Shown here one piece after another: positions 4,399 through 37,674 of a DNA stretch of 37,674 bases. A program made the position numbers and the translations under genes. The notes under the pieces are model-generated. The model saw only the letters and a list, made by a program, of their open reading frames with translations. It ran no database searches and was not told the DNA's origin. The stretch comes from Candidatus Zixiibacteriota bacterium (GTDB taxonomy: Bacteria; Zixibacteria; MSB-5A5; WJJR01): assembly GCA_016199865.1 (NCBI GenBank), contig JACQFV010000005.1, positions 1 through 37,674 of the forward strand, in the 5' to 3' direction. Numbering within the stretch: position 1 is the first letter of the stretch; every line of letters begins with the position of its first letter.

Positions 4399-5775
4399 CT
4401 CCCCTCCCTTACCACCTGCGCCACCAAAACCCGGCGCGTTCGTGCGGTGATCTTCGCCCGTTCGGCGATCGGATGACCAATCGGCCAGAGGATGCCCGCT
4501 TCGTCGGTCAGAACGGGCACATCCGGCCGTTCAAAGACAGGCACGCCGCGGTCCGCCAGAAGGTCGGCCAGCTTCTTGGAGCCGTTCAAGCCAATCGGAC
4601 GATACCGATCTCCGGCCTCAGGGCTCCGCAGGGACAACTGCCCCCGTAGATGATCGCAATCGAACTGGGCGCAGACTCGATCATTTCCTGACAGCGGCGC
4701 CGCCGTTTCACGCACTTGAGTTTTCAAATGCACGGCTCCGGGCGCTGCGATCTCGCCGTCGCGGGGAATCTTCACTGCCGGCCGCCGGGGTAAACGAGCC
4801 ACGCCACGCCGGGCGACGGCAATCTCACCTTTGGAGCGGATGATCACCAGTTCCCCCTGCTCGACCGTGCCGCTGGCCTGCCCGTCAGATCCCGAACGCA
4901 ACTGAGTGAACCGCTCGACGGTGCCGGGCCGGGGGACCATTTCCAAACCCACCCGTTCCATGAGGTCACGCAGCACGAACGGATCGAGCGCTGCATCATA
5001 CCGCCTGAGCGCCCCGACTTCAAGCGTCAAGCGGGCCGACCCGCTGGCGCGGATGGCCGTCTGAATTGTCCGGTGTGCCCGACGGCGGAGATACTCGTGT
5101 TGCCGCCAGAGTTGTTCACCCATTCGCGCCAGGCCCTCGACCGCGGCCGGATTGATCTGGCTCCACTGCGGCAGGATGGTGGCCCGGATACGATTGCGCT
5201 GATATCGGGTGGAGCCATTGGACGAATCCGTGCGGTAGGGAAGATCGTGTGAGTCGAGAAAGCGCAGAATAAGAATCGTTCAGCTGATGCGCCGTGGCAA
5301 TCCAGTCATACCCGTGCCTGTCGGCGAGGCGGTCAAAGAATTCGTAGCGCGCCCGTCGTGCCCACGATTGCAGATTGAATCCAGTCCCCTTCTCCATGTG
5401 TGCCATGCGACGGCTGTGGAAGCGAACACCCCAACGCCGGGCCAGACCTCGGGCGAATGCGTGGTCGCCTTCCGATTCGGCGCCGCGCAGGCCATAGTTG
5501 ACGTGCGCCGCCCCGATCGTCCAACGGTGTTGCCTGGCCAGCCCGGCCAGAATGGCCAGCAGTGCCACCGAGTCGGGCCCGCCGGAGAGCGCTACCAGAA
5601 CATGCGCGCCACGTCGCGGCCGCCCGTAGCGGGAGAAATAGCGCTCCACCAACGTCACGATGGGCATGTCCACGGGGGAAGACACGGCCGCGCGCACATC
5701 CGCCAACGAAGGGATGAATGGCCGCGCCGGACGAGCGCTTGACCTGTGGCCCGAAGCCGGTTGGGAGGATTTCAT
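4395..5775 (-). pseudogene. tilS: tRNA(Ile)-lysidine synthetase, disrupted by an internal deletion and frameshift at ~5271 (real lesion or assembly artefact)
   Basis: 5' frame has ALSGGPDS, AHVNYGLRG, ARRARYEFF and IATAHQLND. The frame then shifts by 1 nt to ILRFLDSHDLPYRTDSSN..YQRNRIR, which runs into the 4395..5123 ORF (TilS_C: GDRYRP, KKLADLL, ER..VPVL). The usual ET...RG.G..GL...RPLL block is missing. Start ATG 5775 overlaps the upstream stop (ATGA). Confidence 0.88.
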
Positions 5776-7616
5776 CGCACGCACACCACCAGCATGGTCA
5801 CATCATCGACCGGCGCGTTTGGATCGGCGAACTCCTGCAGGGACGTGCGCACGGCGCTCACGATCTGCTCGGCCGATTGACTGGAATTGGCTCTCACCAG
5901 ATCGGTCAGCCGCGTCATGTCGTACATGCTGCCGTCCTTGCCGACCATCTCGGTAACACCATCGGTGTAGAGCAAAATCACGTCACCGGGCGACAGCCCG
6001 ATCGCCCGCTCCTCGAAAATCGAATTTTCGAACAAGCCCAGCGCCGTGCCCCCCTCTTTCAAGAAGAGGATCGTGCCGTCGGCGCGGCGCAGAATCCCCG
6101 GCGGATGGCCGGCATTGGAAAACGTGAAGATGCGGTTCTTCGTGTCCAGGACACCATAGATCGCCGTGACGAACCGGGCCTGATCATTGCGCTCGCAGAG
6201 GAGCCGGTTCACCTTTTGCATGATGCTGCGCAGGGCGTAGTTGTTGCGAATCTCGGCGATGAGCGAGGCGCGGAAGGAGGCCATGATGAGCGACGCCGGA
6301 ATTCCCTTGCCCGCCACGTCGGCGATGGCGATGCCGATCTGACCGTCGATGATGTCGATGAAATCGTAATAGTCGCCGCCAACCTCGGCCGACGGGATGT
6401 TGACCCCGGCGATGTCGAACCCGGCGATTTTCGGGCTGGCGCCGGGCAGGAAGGTCGTCTGGATCTGCCGGGCGACCTCCAATTCCCCCTTGATGCGCCT
6501 CTGCTCCAACACGGCCGCGTGGATGCGGGCGCGTTCCAGGGCCACACCGGCGTGCTGGGCGAAGGCCGAGACCAGATCCATATCCGCCTCAAAAAACCCA
6601 CTGACAAGGTCTCGTTCGATGTTCAGTACGCCCATCAGGCGGTCGCCGGCAAAAATCGGCACGACCATCTCGGAGCGCGTCAGCTCGCGGGCCTTGGCAT
6701 AACGGGCATCCTGCCGGACGTCATCGACGATCAACGGCTTGCCGTTGGCGGCCACCCACCCCACCAGACCCCGCCGCGCCTTGTTCTCGAGAGGTGACGC
6801 CCCCGTCTCCTTTTCCGGGGCGTAGCCCCGGTCGACGATCCGTTCCACGCGGCCATCCCTGCCGACCAGAAAGATCCCGCCGGCGTTGTAGGGGACCACT
6901 TTCTGGAGGGAATCGAGGATGGCGTCGAGAACTTCGTCAAGGTCCAAAGTCGACAGGAGCATCCGGCCGGCTTCCACGAGCATCTGGTTTTCGAGAGACT
7001 GCCTCTCCGTCTGGCGATAAAGCAAGGCATTGTCCAGCGCGACCGCCGCCTGTTCGGCCAGAGGTACCAGAAGCGTTTGGTTGCGCACTCCCGAATGGGT
7101 GGCGCTGGTCAGAACTCCGATTGCCCCCATGGTGCGGGCCCGATGAACCAGAGGCACCCACCGCTCCGCGGTGGCGCCACGGTCGCCGACGGCTTGTGCG
7201 ATGGCCTCTTCGACGGCGGGCAGCGTGTTCGAAAATGACCCCGTGCTCAAGGGACGCCCTTCCAGCCAGTGGATGAAGGTGCGGCCGACCGATGATGGCA
7301 GGTCCACGGGAGCATCGGTGTCCCGGAGCCACATTTTGAAAATGACCGGATGGTGCGTGCGCGGACGGTGCAGAAGAAGTATGGCCCCTTCCGATTCCGT
7401 CAGGGTCGCCACCGTCCTGACGACAATCTCGTAAAGCTCCCCCAGACGCAGGGTTGCGTGCATGGCGCGCGCCGCGCCGGCCAACGGTTCCGCCTCCGAG
7501 TGACTGACCCGCCCGGAGCCGCCATCTTGGCCGTTCGGCGAGTCCGGTTTGGGATTCTCGCGGTTCACTCGGACCGGTTCCTTGGATGTCGTCTGAGTCA
7601 GCGTGTTCATCGGCAC
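5772..7616 (-). CDS. GAF-GAF-PP2C (SpoIIE/RsbU-type) serine phosphatase
   Basis: Two GAF domains ending AEQAAVALDNA and AQHAGVALERA. PP2C motifs VGGDYYDF, IADVAGKG, NAGHPP, LYTDGVTE, DDVT. Confidence 0.92.
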   Translation of the reverse strand: MPMNTLTQTTSKEPVRVNRENPKPDSPNGQDGGSGRVSHSEAEPLAGAARAMHATLRLGELYEIVVRTVATLTESEGAILLLHRPRTHHPVIFKMWLRDTDAPVDLPSSVGRTFIHWLEGRPLSTGSFSNTLPAVEEAIAQAVGDRGATAERWVPLVHRARTMGAIGVLTSATHSGVRNQTLLVPLAEQAAVALDNALLYRQTERQSLENQMLVEAGRMLLSTLDLDEVLDAILDSLQKVVPYNAGGIFLVGRDGRVERIVDRGYAPEKETGASPLENKARRGLVGWVAANGKPLIVDDVRQDARYAKARELTRSEMVVPIFAGDRLMGVLNIERDLVSGFFEADMDLVSAFAQHAGVALERARIHAAVLEQRRIKGELEVARQIQTTFLPGASPKIAGFDIAGVNIPSAEVGGDYYDFIDIIDGQIGIAIADVAGKGIPASLIMASFRASLIAEIRNNYALRSIMQKVNRLLCERNDQARFVTAIYGVLDTKNRIFTFSNAGHPPGILRRADGTILFLKEGGTALGLFENSIFEERAIGLSPGDVILLYTDGVTEMVGKDGSMYDMTRLTDLVRANSSQSAEQIVSAVRTSLQEFADPNAPVDDVTMLVVCVR

Positions 7617-17866: not shown

Positions 17867-17982
17867 TCGCGGATTAGGATCCCGGGGGTGCATCTCCGAG
17901 TACCTTCTCGTCATGTGTGAATTGGCTCCCGGCGAACGTGGCGAGGCGGTTCCGGTCCCCCCGCTAAGAGAGAAAAAGCAGA

Positions 17983-18034
17983 CCCTTCGCTTCATCCCAT
18001 CCGCCATCGGCGGATGGGATTCGCTCAGGGTGAC
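17983..18034 (-). repeat. Solo copy of the GIY-YIG-associated 'CCYGAGCGA-[hairpin]-GA..CGARGG' repeat
   Basis: Minus strand: GTCACCCTGAGCGA-[ATCCCATCCGCC GAT GGCGGATGGGAT]-GAAGCGAAGGG. Same flanks as 35712-35751 and 37302-37341. Confidence 0.75.
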
Positions 18035-33585: not shown

Positions 33586-33684
33586 CCCTCACCTCGCAGA
33601 TCCCGGCAGCGGGGCCAGCCCTCTCCCTGAAAGGGAGAGGGGGATTTTTCCCCTCTCCCCTCTGGGGAGAGGGTAGGGTGAGGG
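33586..33684. repeat. CCCTCACC/CCCTCTCCC-type palindromic doublet inside the cytochrome bc operon
   Basis: CCCTCACC (33586-33593) and GGTGAGGG (33677-33684) enclose two 10-bp stems: CCCTCTCCCT-GAA-AGGGAGAGGG (33619-33641) and CCCTCTCCCC-TCT-GGGGAGAGGG (33651-33673). Confidence 0.8.
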
Positions 33685-33749
33685 GAGTGAATCGTCCAGG
33701 ACATGGTCATGCTGTATTGCTCTTCAATGCATGGATCCGTGATCATTGG

Positions 33750-34526
33750 CTACAGCTTCCCCGTCGGTCCGGAAATTCCCCCGTCTTTACGGATACGCCA
33801 GAAGTGCACAATCATGAGCAGGCCGGCCGCGACCGGCAGAAAGACACAGTGCAGGACGTAGAACCGCAACAGGGCCGGTGGCCCGACCTGGGTTCCCCCC
33901 AACAGCAGGAAGCGGATGTCATTGTCGGGACGCATGCCGATCTGCGGCCCCAAGGGACCCTCATGACCCAGAAGGGGCGTGGCGCGCGCCATGTTCGTCC
34001 CGACCGTGACCGCCCACATGGCCAACTGGTCCCAGGGGAGCATATAGCCGGTGAAACTCAAGAGCAGGGTCAGAACCAAGAGAATCACGCCGATGACCCA
34101 GTTGAACTCACGCGGCGGCTTGTAGGAGCCGGTCATGAACACGCGCAGCATGTGCAGCCACACGGTGATCACCATCGCGTGCGCCGACCAGCGGTGCATG
34201 TTGCGGATGAACGCCCCAAACGGCACGTCGTTCATCAGATATTTCATGTCATAGTAGGCGTACTGGTCGGTGGGCCGGTAGTAGAACATCAGCACGACGC
34301 CGGTGACGGTCAGGACGAGAAAGATGAAGAACGAAATGCCCCCCATCCCCCAGGTGTAGCGCAGCTCGACCGCATGACGCGAGACCTTGGTCGGGTGCAG
34401 GTGCAGCCAGACGTTGGAGAGAACCTGCAGGTACCGGTTGCGCGGCGTATCCTTGTAGTCATGCCGGAAGACCGACTTCCAGATCGGCGATTTGGTGACC
34501 GTTTTTTTCAGATCGGCGATGGGCAT
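33750..34526 (-). CDS. Cytochrome b N-terminal half (cytochrome b6/PetB-like)
   Basis: [53 protein letters not shown]14-H (b6-type His spacing). Confidence 0.93.
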
Positions 34527-34563
34527 GTCGGGTTAGTCCGTATCTGGAACTCTGTGCGCCGGC

Positions 34564-35277
34564 TCACACTTTGAGGTACGACTGGGGATTGTCCCAGCCG
34601 CCGCTCTCATACAGAAACTTGATCGACTTGTCGACGATGATCTGGCGATCCTCGGCCAGCGCGACTTTCAATCGCTCCAAGGCCCGCGGCGCCGGGCCCT
34701 CGAAGTTGATCCCGCTGCGGTAAAACCCGGAGCCGTGGCAGGGGCATTTGAATTTGTCTTCCTTTTCCAGCCAGCGCGGTGTGCATCCCAGATGGGTGCA
34801 GATGCCGGACAAAGCGTAGATGCGCCCCTCATCGCGAATGATCCAGACGCGAAAGTCGCGCATCCATTTGGTCGACACGGTACCCGGCAGATACTCCTCG
34901 GGGAATCCGGCTTTGAAGATCGGCGACGGCTCGAACAGAACACGGGGGAACATGAACCGGAGTGTCCCAACCAGCATGACCCCCAAGAACGAGAAGATCG
35001 ACAGCCATCCCAGTTTTTCCAGAAATCCCCGCCGCGAGTACCGCCAGATATTTTGGTCGCCTTCGGCTTCGGTCGTGCGCCGCAGGCCATCGTCCTTCTT
35101 TTCCGGCTTGGGCGGGACATCCTTGATCGCCACATTGGCGCCGCGCTCCCGTGCCGGAGCGGCCTTGACCGCGGGACCGACCGGTCCGTCGGCCGCCTTC
35201 GGCTTGGGCGCCGGTTTGGCAGGCGTGCCCTCGGGCTCCGGGGAGCCGGCGATGTTGTCGGGAGTTTCGTCCGCCAT
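34564..35277 (-). CDS. Rieske 2Fe-2S subunit
   Basis: Tat motif SRRGFL plus TM segment, CTHLGC and CPCHGSGFY, GPAPRAL. Long Pro/Ala/Lys-rich N-terminal extension. Confidence 0.95.
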   Translation of the reverse strand: MADETPDNIAGSPEPEGTPAKPAPKPKAADGPVGPAVKAAPARERGANVAIKDVPPKPEKKDDGLRRTTEAEGDQNIWRYSRRGFLEKLGWLSIFSFLGVMLVGTLRFMFPRVLFEPSPIFKAGFPEEYLPGTVSTKWMRDFRVWIIRDEGRIYALSGICTHLGCTPRWLEKEDKFKCPCHGSGFYRSGINFEGPAPRALERLKVALAEDRQIIVDKSIKFLYESGGWDNPQSYLKV

Positions 35278-35401
35278 TCTGCCTTATCGCGCCGATCTCA
35301 CGGAGTCCTTCGCCTGTCCCCTACTCCCGGATTCTCGCGAGTACGACTTATCGCAAATCCGGACCAATTTGCGGCCTTATTGCCGACCGCAAGAACTTTC
35401 G

Positions 35402-35430
35402 ATCATACCCCGACCGGCCGAGGTTGTCAA
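35402..35430 (-). promoter_or_regulatory. Sigma70-type promoter of the Rieske/cyt b/cyt c operon
   Basis: Minus strand TTGACA (35430-35425), 17-bp spacer, TATGAT (35407-35402). Confidence 0.75.
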
Positions 35431-35619
35431 GCCGATTCCCGGAACAGGGGCGCTGAAGAATGCCGACCCCGAGTTGTTTGCGAACCCGATGGCATCCTGG
35501 CGTTTGGGCTGGCTGTAAGGTGCCGGAAATGGTATCATGGGGGTTCTTCCGGTGGCGTGACCCTGTCCGCAAGAGATAGGGCGCGTGATCGGCGCCGCGT
35601 CTCAGTGGCGACGCAAAAG

Positions 35620-35707
35620 GGAGAGGTGGCCGAGTCGGCTTAAGGCAGCTGCCTGCTAAGCAGTTAGTGGGGAAACCCGCTCCCGGGTTCGAATCCCGGC
35701 CTCTCCG
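35620..35707 (+). tRNA. tRNA-Ser(GCT), CCA not encoded
   Basis: Acceptor GGAGAGG/CCTCTCC plus G discriminator. Anticodon arm GCTGC-CTGCTAA-GCAGT. Long variable arm AGTGGG-GAAA-CCCGCT. T arm CCGGG-TTCGAAT-CCCGG. Confidence 0.97.
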
Positions 35708-36083
35708 TTTTTCCTGAGCGAATTTCGGCGGAGCCGAAATGAGTCGAAGGGTTACCCGATGACCAACGGACGCAAACCTTGGTTCGTTTATCTCGTTCGC
35801 TGTCGAGATGGCTCGATCTATGCAGGAATCACCGACGACATCAACGCGCGGATTAAGAAACACAACAGCGGCAAGGGCGCCACGTATACCGCTCAACGCC
35901 GTCCGGTGACGCTCCTGTTTTCCGAACCTCATCCCGATCAGAGTAGTGCTCGCCGTCGGGAGATTCAATTGAAGGGCTGGACAAGGGAAAAGAAGGAACA
36001 ACTCATTGCGGGTTTCCCTCGACCTCACTCGGGATGAATCCCTCGGAGGAGTTCGGGATAGACGAATCACGGTCTCTCCACCA
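35693..36083 (+). mobile_element. Unit 1: tRNA 3' end / structured repeat / GIY-YIG gene / inverted repeat / degenerate tRNA 3' end with CCA
   Basis: Left repeat at 35712-35751. Right inverted repeats TCCCTCG-N7-TCGGGAT twice (36015-36035, 36039-36059). CGAATCACGGTCTCTCC-ACCA (36063-36083) matches tRNA 35690-35706 at 15/17. Confidence 0.65.
35759..36037 (+). CDS. Stand-alone GIY-YIG nuclease (UPF0213/YhbQ-like), copy 1
   Basis: WFVYLVRCRDGSIYAGIT...R...HNSGKGATYT..RRPV.L...E.......A..RE.QLK. Confidence 0.93.
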   Translation: MTNGRKPWFVYLVRCRDGSIYAGITDDINARIKKHNSGKGATYTAQRRPVTLLFSEPHPDQSSARRREIQLKGWTREKKEQLIAGFPRPHSG

Positions 36084-36180
36084 TAAGAAAATGGCACACC
36101 AGCACCCGGCCCTACCGGACGTGTTGTATTGGTTGAGTGAAGAGAGGGTCTGCACCCAAAGTGGAATCTGAAGACTTCAG

Positions 36181-36558
36181 ATGAAGAAACCGATCAGCGT
36201 CGACGCGTACATCGCCGCGGCACCCAGGGAAGTGCGGGGAAGACTGAATCAGGTTCGCTCAGCAATCAGGAAAGCAGCCCCCAAAGCGATGGAAAGAATA
36301 AGCTACGGGATGCCTTTCTACGAGTACGGGGGTTCGGGCTACAAGGGTCGATTGATTTACTTTGCCGCGTTCAAAGAACACATCGGCGTGTTCATACCAC
36401 CGTCGCAGGGGGCGGTACCGCGTGAAATGGAGATGTATCGAACCGCCAAGTCTTCATTTCGTTTCCCGCTGAAAGAGCCGATCCCGCTGGGAGTGATCAG
36501 CAGAACGGTGAAGCAACTGGTAAGGCAAAGAGTCGCGGCAAACAGAATGAAGTCATGA
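36181..36558 (+). CDS. DUF1801 (YdhG-like) protein
   Basis: VDAYIAAAP...R..L..VR.AIRKAAP.A.ERISYGMPFY...LIYFAAFKEHIG...FRFPL.EPIP. Confidence 0.85.
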   Translation: MKKPISVDAYIAAAPREVRGRLNQVRSAIRKAAPKAMERISYGMPFYEYGGSGYKGRLIYFAAFKEHIGVFIPPSQGAVPREMEMYRTAKSSFRFPLKEPIPLGVISRTVKQLVRQRVAANRMKS

Positions 36559-36616
36559 TCGTGTTGCGGACAAGTTAAGGGTCTTGGAAGCACGTTTCAG
36601 ATCTGGATAACGACCT

Positions 36617-37114
36617 GTGAAGAGCAGAACAATACTGATCGCCATGGCGGTCGCGGCTTTCGAGGTAGCAGGGCTTTTTCTCTTCGGACGACCAGGCGGC
36701 CGTCCTGAGCGTCTACCGAAGGGTACTCCAGCCGAATTCAATCTCATCTTCAAGTATGACGGAAGCGTGCTGAATACCTTTGAGCATACCTATACCAAGG
36801 ACATGGTGGGTGATCCCTCCATCACGATCAGGTTTGAACTTTCGCAGAGCGAACTGGCCCAAGTCTATCAGAAAATATATGACTTGGATCCATACGATGT
36901 CGGCCAACGGACGAGTGGGAATGGCGCGAGAATCCCCTGCTCGTACTTCTTCCTGAGAGTTCAGGTTGATTCAACCACGAAAGAAATGTCGTGGAGTGAT
37001 TGCCGGGGATTGGTGAACGACACACTGCAGCAGTTGACCGAGTACATCATCTCAGTAATTGAGTCAAAAGAAGACTACAAGAGACTGCCGGCGCCAAGAT
37101 TCTTTCGCTATTGA
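36617..37114 (+). CDS. Hypothetical protein with N-terminal hydrophobic anchor/signal
   Basis: 165-aa ORF with a hydrophobic N-terminus, two Cys residues and natural composition. Family not recognised. Confidence 0.7.
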   Translation: MKSRTILIAMAVAAFEVAGLFLFGRPGGRPERLPKGTPAEFNLIFKYDGSVLNTFEHTYTKDMVGDPSITIRFELSQSELAQVYQKIYDLDPYDVGQRTSGNGARIPCSYFFLRVQVDSTTKEMSWSDCRGLVNDTLQQLTEYIISVIESKEDYKRLPAPRFFRY

Positions 37115-37282
37115 TGATACCCGGAGGGATTTCCTGCCAAAGAGAAACTCAACATCGCCGATTCTGCTCTGGTTCCCGCGCATCTTTCGTGTGGACAAGA
37201 CGAGGCCACTCAATTGTCAACGGAAATGCAACGCCATGAAAATGGTTCCCGGGCTTACGCTGATGGCGGCGGCAATCGAGGC

Positions 37283-37299
37283 ATCCCGGCCTCTCCGTT
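37283..37299 (+). repeat. Exact 17-bp direct repeat of the tRNA-Ser 3' end (att-like)
   Basis: ATCCCGGCCTCTCCGTT, identical to 35693-35709, 1590 bp apart. Confidence 0.92.
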
Positions 37300-37371
37300 C
37301 ATCCCGAGCGAGTTCCGCCTCTGGCGGAACGAGTCGAGGGACTTATCCTGAACGATTCCCGAGATAAACGA

Positions 37372-37650
37372 ATGCCCAACGCCCGCAATCCCTGGTATGT
37401 CTACCTTCTCCGCTGTTCTGACGGTTCCATCTACACCGGAATATCGAAAGACGTTGACACCCGGGTGAAGAAGCACAATGCCGGTGCCGGTGCCGTCTAC
37501 ACGGCCCAGCGGCGTCCTGTATCTCTGATATACCAAGAACGACACCGCAACCAGAGTTCGGCGATGGTGAGAGAACGGCAGATCAAGCGGCTGAGGAAGG
37601 CCCAGAAAGAAGTCCTCGCCTTGGGATCGCCCCGGCTGCATTCGCAATGA
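37372..37650 (+). CDS. Stand-alone GIY-YIG nuclease (UPF0213/YhbQ-like), copy 2
   Basis: WYVYLLRCSDGSIYTGIS...R...HNAGAGAVYT..RRPV...RE.QIK. Colinear with copy 1, 53/92 identical by hand count. Confidence 0.93.
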   Translation: MPNARNPWYVYLLRCSDGSIYTGISKDVDTRVKKHNAGAGAVYTAQRRPVSLIYQERHRNQSSAMVRERQIKRLRKAQKEVLALGSPRLHSQ

Positions 37651-37674
37651 GAAGCCCGCACTCCGCGCAAGATT

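Follow-up and report, generated by a model that had tools for sequence, protein, structure and literature searches.

What builds a tandem array in which copies of a tRNA 3′ end alternate with genes for a very small nuclease? The question is posed by the right-hand end of a 37,674-nt contig of a Candidatus Zixiibacteriota bacterium (GenBank assembly GCA_016199865.1, contig JACQFV010000005.1), where a tRNA-Ser(GCT) gene is followed by two genes, T1 and T2, for 92-aa GIY-YIG proteins of the UPF0213/Slx1-like family. We refer to the whole of this stretch, which is one entire contig (C53) of its genome (G000), as the window. We find that T1 belongs to a unit of ~350 bp, bounded by inverted hairpin motifs and by a short piece of the tRNA end, which is found again in nine related genomes. 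We read the locus as a short tandem array of a hairpin-ended selfish element, whose minimal nuclease would cut hairpin or T-arm DNA and spread by way of host repair, and we put the probability of this reading at about 0.6. The wider proposal is tentative, and we give it rather less than an even chance: that a subset of UPF0213 GIY-YIG proteins are the nucleases of a new class of hairpin-ended element, which would insert into the T-arm loop with duplication of the tRNA tail, give rise to mini-units lacking an open reading frame (ORF) and seed dispersed doublets.

The tRNA gene (35620..35707, plus strand, as are all features below unless stated; Rfam tRNA 58.4 bits) encodes no CCA and is the only one called by ARAGORN in the window. 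The unit behind it consists of an 18-nt tRNA tail, a two-helix hairpin motif, the GIY-YIG gene, the same motif inverted, and 18 nt of tRNA end again. Its left terminal inverted repeat (TIR-L, 35709..35753; covariance model R1, E 1.3e-13) begins 2 nt past the tRNA end and is made up of two helices, the outer of 4 bp and the inner a GC-rich hairpin of 8 bp, separated by an invariant internal loop (GAGCGA / GAGTCGA). T1 occupies 35759..36037, and the right inverted end (TIR-R, 36010..36062, delimited from inverted-repeat pairs I2 and I5 and from the right ends of relatives) comprises two tandem 24-29-nt copies, the second degenerate, that are the reverse complement of the TIR-L arms. TIR-R encodes the last 8 codons and the stop codon of T1, and directly abutting it is the tRNA segment CGAATCC..., which runs from T-loop position 56 to the 3′ end. 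What the first-pass annotation had listed separately as a structured repeat and an inverted repeat over the stop codon prove, once relatives are compared, to be the left and right ends of a single element, inverted with respect to each other.

The left end of the second unit (TIR-L, 37299..37343; R1 E 6.7e-14) carries compensatory changes in the hairpin stem relative to the first. Across 11 copies of the motif, 96.2% of the cells of its 12 pairs are paired and 10 of the 12 pairs have changed on both sides; none of 500 shuffles paired as highly and slid partners gave 29-52%, a comparison biased somewhat in favour of the motif, whose structure was derived from the same sequences. An Rfam scan of 35000-37674 (E up to 5) returned nothing on this leader, the matches being the tRNA and sub-threshold chance similarities. 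By eye the leader could also be taken for a hammerhead, but copy C of the repeat has no such core and this interpretation was rejected.

Of four colinear copies of the tRNA 3′ end proposed at the outset, three are real and the fourth is at chance level. Copy A (35690-35707) is the last 18 nt of tRNA-Ser(GCT) itself, from T-loop C56 to the discriminator. Copy B (36063..36083) matches the tRNA end at 15 of 18 positions (36063-36080), a level of at least 15/18 that just 4 of 20,000 random 60-nt windows of the G000 genome attain, and is followed by a CCA that the tRNA-Ser genes of this group do not encode. Copy C (37283..37297), 15 nt of tRNA end identical to A, retains that identity for 2 nt into the leader and opens a 58-nt repeat of 78% identity (35693-35750 against 37283-37340) covering both tRNA end and structured leader. 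The putative copy D (37650..37667, 12/18) is not beyond chance, since 635 of 20,000 random windows match as well; it overlaps the start of a permease ORF that runs on into contig C82, which shares the last 141 nt of the window and extends it rightwards by 3.5 kb with the permease (for amino acids), a Rieske oxygenase and a methyltransferase. The spacings of ~370 bp first noted are 373 bp for A-B and about 368-370 bp for C-D.

That the unit is discrete, bounded by tRNA ends and recurrent at several tRNAs, as first supposed, is clear from the loci of relatives and beyond. T1 as query yielded 29 loci from 40 relatives. Eleven of them are situated behind a same-strand tRNA-Ser(GCT), and 7 of these 11 have a second copy of the last 17 nt of the tRNA (0-2 mismatches) 349-397 bp downstream. 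In G001 and G010, lineage-specific changes in the acceptor or T-stem are present in both tRNA-end copies. The left motif begins 2 nt past the tRNA end in 8 of 8 genomes, and in some lineages the left end lies further from the tRNA, behind a hairpin spacer; at all five TIR-bearing right ends inspected, the tRNA-tail copy is preceded by the inverted motif and starts with CGAATCC, at T-loop C56. Judged from these alignments, the net effect is an apparent insertion between T-loop positions 55 and 56 that leaves the tRNA intact. Complete units were also found at Gln-TTG, Thr-TGT (two genomes), Ser-TGA, Ser-GGA and Ser-CGA (the last in G035), in each case with a repeat that agrees with the adjacent tRNA over 14-22 nt; these bring the tRNA species to six, and the units outside the group come from Zixibacteria-like, Dehalococcoidales and other lineages. 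A scan with the junction pattern gave 120 matches, most of them in coding sequence without features of the element and with an estimated ~70 expected by chance, and among them 6 full units including those at Ser-TGA, Ser-GGA and the second Thr-TGT. Five further tRNA-adjacent GIY-YIG loci (L085, L107, L110, L128 and L156) have no tRNA repeat at the level of 16-mers with up to 1 mismatch.

Filled and empty sites, for which the first-pass annotation had proposed a search, are both found among relatives. Of 30 tRNA-Ser(GCT) loci, 10 have a GIY-YIG gene directly downstream, 4 are too short to judge and 16 of the 26 judgeable loci lack the gene over at least 1.19 kb. The clearest pair is G006 (empty) and G010 (filled), whose tRNAs are identical and whose upstream sequences are 90% identical: the sequence after the tRNA in G006 aligns from its first base with that following the second repeat in G010, an indel of 349 bp, or one unit. 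The same locus is polymorphic within a population. Contigs from two of four metagenome runs join position 35714 to 37351 (X2, depth 9.68; X3, depth 7.44), the left side of the joint differing from the window at 1 position in 415 nt and the right side at 21 in 324 nt, 17 of them within the first 100 nt; this evidence consists of assembled contigs, not reads. A closely related, co-occurring genotype therefore lacks T1, copies B and C, the 1.2-kb insert or cargo between them and both motif cores. The missing block of 1,636 bp (35715..37350, no strand assigned) holds the TIR-L core, T1, B, cargo, C and the second TIR-L, and has its borders within a short direct repeat, family D3 (35709-35722 and 37343-37356). 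Run X1 has a third continuation branching at the same point, and none of the listed holders of the window stretch is an RNA run. Between G010 and G006, and at the joint in X2 and X3, the locus thus has the presence/absence polymorphism between relatives that is looked for in homing genes.

Deletion derivatives of the unit accompany it. In G009, T1 units stripped of their ORF, each of 94 nt, stand three in tandem; in G004 there are two ORF-less units behind tRNA-Ser(GGA), and after each comes the 18-nt piece of that same tRNA; and locus L270 has one mini-unit with a 20-codon remnant of the ORF; being short, with inverted ends, without an ORF, in multiple copies and of coding-element origin, these mini-units have the attributes of miniature inverted-repeat transposable elements. 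The insertion point can be read directly in G035, in which a second copy of tRNA-Ser(GCT) is split by the inverted motif exactly between T-loop positions 55 and 56, and a partial tRNA-Leu copy at locus L220 has a solo hairpin end at the same place. The motif is also dispersed. Model R1 finds 14-20 matches in G000, 35 in G004, 19 in G035, 11 in G023 and none in G002, G006 and G007, and at least 10 of 13 G000 copies inspected from outside this tRNA locus are, by eye, inverted doublets of about 125-135 bp; in G009 all matches but one are at the tRNA locus itself. Five or more matches occur only in genomes with a motif-flanked GIY-YIG unit (G000, G004, G009, G023 and G035), a co-occurrence that is suggestive only, because R1 was derived from the very same units and the genomes are relatives of one another. 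R1 is moreover biased to the long-hairpin form, and misses the units that G043 and G044 carry, returning no match in either genome.

Other occurrences of the motif may be recorded here. The window contig has a further copy distant from the tRNA (17981-18033, minus strand; R1 E 5.8e-7). The doublets of G000 (C90:9456-9590, C113:9066-9194, and others on C124, C2, C88, C178, C207, C163 and C15) are intergenic, gene-less and REPIN-like; in each, a spacer of 20-30 nt separates two copies of the motif in inverted orientation (ends TGTCAT...ATGACA). On C192 of the same genome (18-198; L009), a motif doublet lies 55 nt past tRNA-Leu(TAG), and no GIY-YIG gene goes with it. Several Allosphingosinicella genomes (L169, L189, L199, L215, L223 and L237) contain a repeat that closes with the same string, ...CTCGAC..CGCTCGGGACGAACGAATCC, with no tRNA nearby, and the motif family therefore reaches the Alphaproteobacteria.

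The two proteins are as first annotated: T1 and T2 (37372..37650) match the Pfam GIY-YIG family (PF01541) with 69.8 and 63.7 bits (cut-off 22.6; E 2.5e-19 and 2e-17) and are 58% identical to each other. The domain spans residues 8-80 of the 92 in T1, with no joined sequence-reading DNA-binding domain. The family profile (A2) matches PDB entries 1zg2 (E 3.8e-26) and 1ywl (E 6.9e-24) and none other at E ≤0.01; NCBIfam has no family for T1, T2, the DUF1801 protein and 165-aa ORF of the cargo, or a GIY-YIG gene on contig C65 that is described below. Among 16 relatives Y21, G23, R31, H35, N36 and E68 do not vary and Y11 is retained in at least 90%, and we take the Tyr, Tyr, Arg, His and Glu residues of this set to be the catalytic ones. 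T1 ends in GFPRPHSG and many relatives in GFPRLRSG-like tails, while T2, with its decayed right end, finishes in GSPRLHSQ. The T1 orthologue of G001 (L013:1489-1782) has cysteine in place of Y11 and may be inactive. A pattern scan confirmed at least 596 UPF0213 relatives across bacterial phyla, and within the class, 35 of 41 genomes, counting G000, encode a relative of T1.

We infer from these features that the GIY-YIG protein is the agent, and propose the following for its cut site and the route of repair. GIY-YIG domains hydrolyse DNA, and Slx1 is structure-specific; a nuclease of 92 aa is too small to read a long sequence and probably recognises DNA structure, like Slx1. Its substrates would be two hairpins, that of the motif and that of the T-arm in tRNA genes, which it would nick or cut in or beside the loop; the recombination and repair systems of the host would then insert a copy of the unit at the break or multiply it in tandem, as with the phage endonuclease SegB. 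ORF-less mini-units and dispersed doublets would spread in trans, in the way that RAYTs propagate REPINs. The 18-22-nt repeat could be target sequence duplicated on insertion, or a tail of tRNA that travels with the element. At six tRNA species its two copies agree with the tRNA beside them, and this favours duplication, or else homing between near-identical genomes.

A number of observations weigh against the selfish-element reading. All of the genomes compared are metagenome assemblies, and most hold a single copy of the unit. The first-pass annotation had expected homologues to be associated with tRNAs, and units do occur at several tRNAs; across phyla, 73 of the 80 best family loci do not lie within 200 nt downstream of a same-strand tRNA; a third GIY-YIG paralogue in relatives is near a tRNA at 0 of 10 loci, and the T2-like genes of G011 and G013 lie 10-17 kb from the tRNA, without repeats, and keep the same right-hand neighbours as T2. 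T1 proteins at this tRNA are 73-85% identical to that of the window, and the neighbouring Rieske protein is 72-79% identical in the same genomes, which fits long vertical residence, not recent spread; the fixed architecture that had been named as evidence against mobility is to this extent present, alongside the filled and empty sites. The loss of the 1,636-bp block as a single piece, with borders in a short direct repeat, makes deletion as possible as insertion. A hydrolytic nuclease cannot join DNA and would need other factors, and Y1 (RAYT/IS200-type) transposases, which are encoded in 37 of the 41 genomes, or the tyrosine recombinases of G000 could act in trans. Much of this would be accommodated if T1 and T2 were vertically inherited Slx1-like repair nucleases co-transcribed with tRNA-Ser, and the motif were of REP type, mobilised by some other enzyme (a Y1 transposase, say) with a tendency to land within or next to hairpins, among them T-arms and terminators, while slippage or deletion between repeats gave rise to the indels and the copies of the tRNA end. 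We consider this unlikely. In its favour, besides the divergence of T1 and the abundance of Y1 transposases, the right-hand neighbourhood of T2 (methyltransferase, prolyl oligopeptidase) is conserved in several genera, motif doublets lie far from any GIY-YIG gene, and a 2006 superfamily survey treats prokaryotic Slx1-like proteins as vertically inherited with a predicted role in repair (PMC1564403). Against it, in many genomes the inverted motif supplies the stop and last 8 codons of T1, the mini-units are not free motifs but T1 units that lack the ORF, and the G010/G006 indel is exactly one unit plus one repeat. Nor do Y1 transposases discriminate as an alternative driver, because they are present almost everywhere, equally so in motif-free genomes such as G002, G006 and G007, and the 20 motif matches of G000 share no contig with the 4 Y1_Tnp matches listed for that genome.

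An integrase-driven history would cast the tRNA-Ser 3′ end as an att site and the repeats as attL/attR scars of successive integrations, reduced by later deletions to an accretion of elements without their integrase, with the enzyme supplied in trans. Direct repeats of the tRNA 3′ end do lie at the borders of the element, which is the classic, textbook signature of a genomic island, and as in tRNA islands and accretion of the cis-mobilisable element type they bound segments that stack in tandem and leave the tRNA intact. G000 has 7 matches to tyrosine recombinases (PF00589), at least 4 of them full-length and elsewhere in the genome, one on C134 right after tRNA-Arg(ACG). A further argument is the cargo between copies B and C (36084..37282). 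As first described, this 1.2-kb segment is of lower G+C content (0.50-0.53 over 36300-37200 against 0.58-0.66 over 33600-35700) and encodes a DUF1801 protein (36181-36558; Pfam E 2.7e-13) and a hypothetical protein, a 165-aa ORF (36617-37114) of no Pfam family that occurs in G000 only among the 41 genomes; a T-stem-like piece (37245-37252, read directly) lies within it 30 nt ahead of copy C. G040 offers a parallel that also tells against the selfish-element reading: between tRNA-Ser(GCT) and a 45-nt repeat of the 3′ part of that tRNA lies an AT-rich 825-bp insert (L064, 1591-2415, tRNA-forward) with a single 225-aa ORF, and with neither an integrase nor a GIY-YIG gene. For the cargo by itself an integrase remnant is a reasonable explanation, although we would not call it probable. 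The cargo has no hairpin ends and is missing together with unit 1, copy C and the second motif as one block, and with the G040 parallel this argues against its capture by the nuclease, as the first-pass annotation had it; it is best read as a separate insertion into the repeat between two units, possibly recombinase-mediated. For the locus as a whole, we regard an integrase-driven origin as improbable. Inverted hairpin ends, a fixed unit size of 349-397 bp, ORF-less mini-units, six tRNA species and dispersal of the motif away from tRNAs are all left unexplained by it, and units of ~350 bp carrying a nuclease gene are unlike such islands. No recombinase gene lies inside the element: neither C53 nor C82 has a match to PF00589, serine recombinases (PF00239) have no match in G000, and the integrase-free state claimed for the window thus extends to the 3.5-kb continuation. 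A Pfam scan of 98 of 169 candidate flanking ORFs, drawn from the 10-18 kb that follow the tRNA in seven relatives and from C82 (loci L074 and L079-L083 were left out), contained no integrase or transposase family. The inverted pair of motifs might alternatively act as RNA, the leader pairing with its inverted copy in a tRNA-mRNA co-transcript and serving, along with the tRNA-like tail, in processing, stability or translational control of the nuclease mRNA. The leader does lie directly between the tRNA and the start codon, and strong covariation marks a folded strand, be it RNA or DNA, but the motif also occurs as gene-less inverted doublets at many unrelated sites on both strands, belongs to no Rfam family and would as an RNA leave the indels and the interrupted tRNA copy without explanation, and we hold this account to be very improbable.

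If the selfish-element reading is correct, its nearest relatives may be sought in two known systems. RAYT (REP-associated tyrosine transposase) genes are themselves flanked by repetitive extragenic palindromic (REP) sequences, and the window's element likewise has a gene flanked by inverted repeat copies that are also dispersed as inverted doublets, at 0-35 matches per genome. RAYTs, however, are HUH/Y1 transposases that cut and rejoin single-stranded DNA, whereas the flanked gene here encodes not a Y1 (HUH) transposase but a hydrolytic GIY-YIG nuclease, and we know of no REPINs that target tRNA T-loops or duplicate tRNA ends. REPINs are inverted REP doublets replicated by a single-copy transposase in systems that are mostly vertical, and our units, too, look old and largely vertical. 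The second system is SegB, a free-standing GIY-YIG homing endonuclease of T-even phages that cuts inside tRNA genes; cutting followed by homologous recombination yields tandem repeats of a tRNA-plus-segB unit, and SegB homologues are frequently tRNA-associated in phages (PMC13096335, as excerpted). The two cases share a GIY-YIG nuclease gene beside a tRNA and tandem repeats of a tRNA-related unit. They differ in that SegB is phage-borne with a repeat unit containing a whole tRNA, whereas the present units sit in bacterial chromosomes with 18-22 nt of tRNA, and in that the hairpin ends and ORF-less derivatives of the window's element have no counterpart in the excerpted SegB account. SegB is also much larger than 92 aa and has a DNA-binding domain, whereas the window protein is a bare Slx1-like domain.

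In its protein the element belongs by sequence to the same family as BH0048 and EF2693, minimal stand-alone GIY-YIG domains of the UPF0213/Slx1-like group, to which YhbQ and YazA also belong; the known members are regarded as repair proteins inherited vertically, whereas the branch in the window is linked to repeats and tRNA ends. The first-pass annotation called the array integron-like, which we retain as a loose analogy only. Integron cassettes form arrays of small units separated by folded, imperfect attC hairpin sites, whereas the present units carry their own nuclease gene and are anchored on a tRNA gene; there is no IntI or other tyrosine recombinase on the window contig, attI and a cassette promoter not having been searched for. 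The literature open to full-text searching, which excludes subscription journals and supplements, contained no link of UPF0213 to tRNA-end repeats, inverted hairpin ends or REP-like repeats, and the element, which combines a free-standing homing-type nuclease with a REPIN-like repeat system, looks like one that has not been described. UPF0213 is widespread and has no established role, and the locus ties one of its branches to a defined DNA structure and a T-loop target. The proposed activity would account for fragments of pseudo-tRNA and for tRNA copies split by hairpins, suggest what may drive one family of palindromic repeats and extend the SegB principle of nuclease-driven amplification at tRNA genes from phages to bacterial chromosomes. 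Should the wider class exist, it would be a GIY-YIG counterpart of the REPIN-RAYT partnership and provide the first concrete activity for a very widespread, uncharacterised family of small proteins.

Some further observations concern GIY-YIG genes and tRNAs elsewhere. Contig C65 of G000 (5455-5960; L008:656-1160) has a different 91-aa GIY-YIG gene, ~30% identical to T1, flanked on one side by tRNA-Met(CAT) and on the other by an almost complete pseudo-copy of this tRNA, with one small TCCGCC...GGCGGA hairpin in place of the D-loop and another in place of the T-loop's 5′ half. In an Armatimonadota locus (L120:2380-2500), a GIY-YIG gene lies behind the motif and a tRNA-like 3′ end with T-arm, acceptor and CCA, which was not called by ARAGORN in its tRNA mode and might belong to a transfer-messenger RNA or a long-arm tRNA. 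Finally, 6 of the 34 tRNA genes of G000 lie within ~310 nt of a contig end (on C24, C40, C70, C192, C203 and C134), which suggests that tRNA-adjacent repeats or polymorphism break the assembly at these points.

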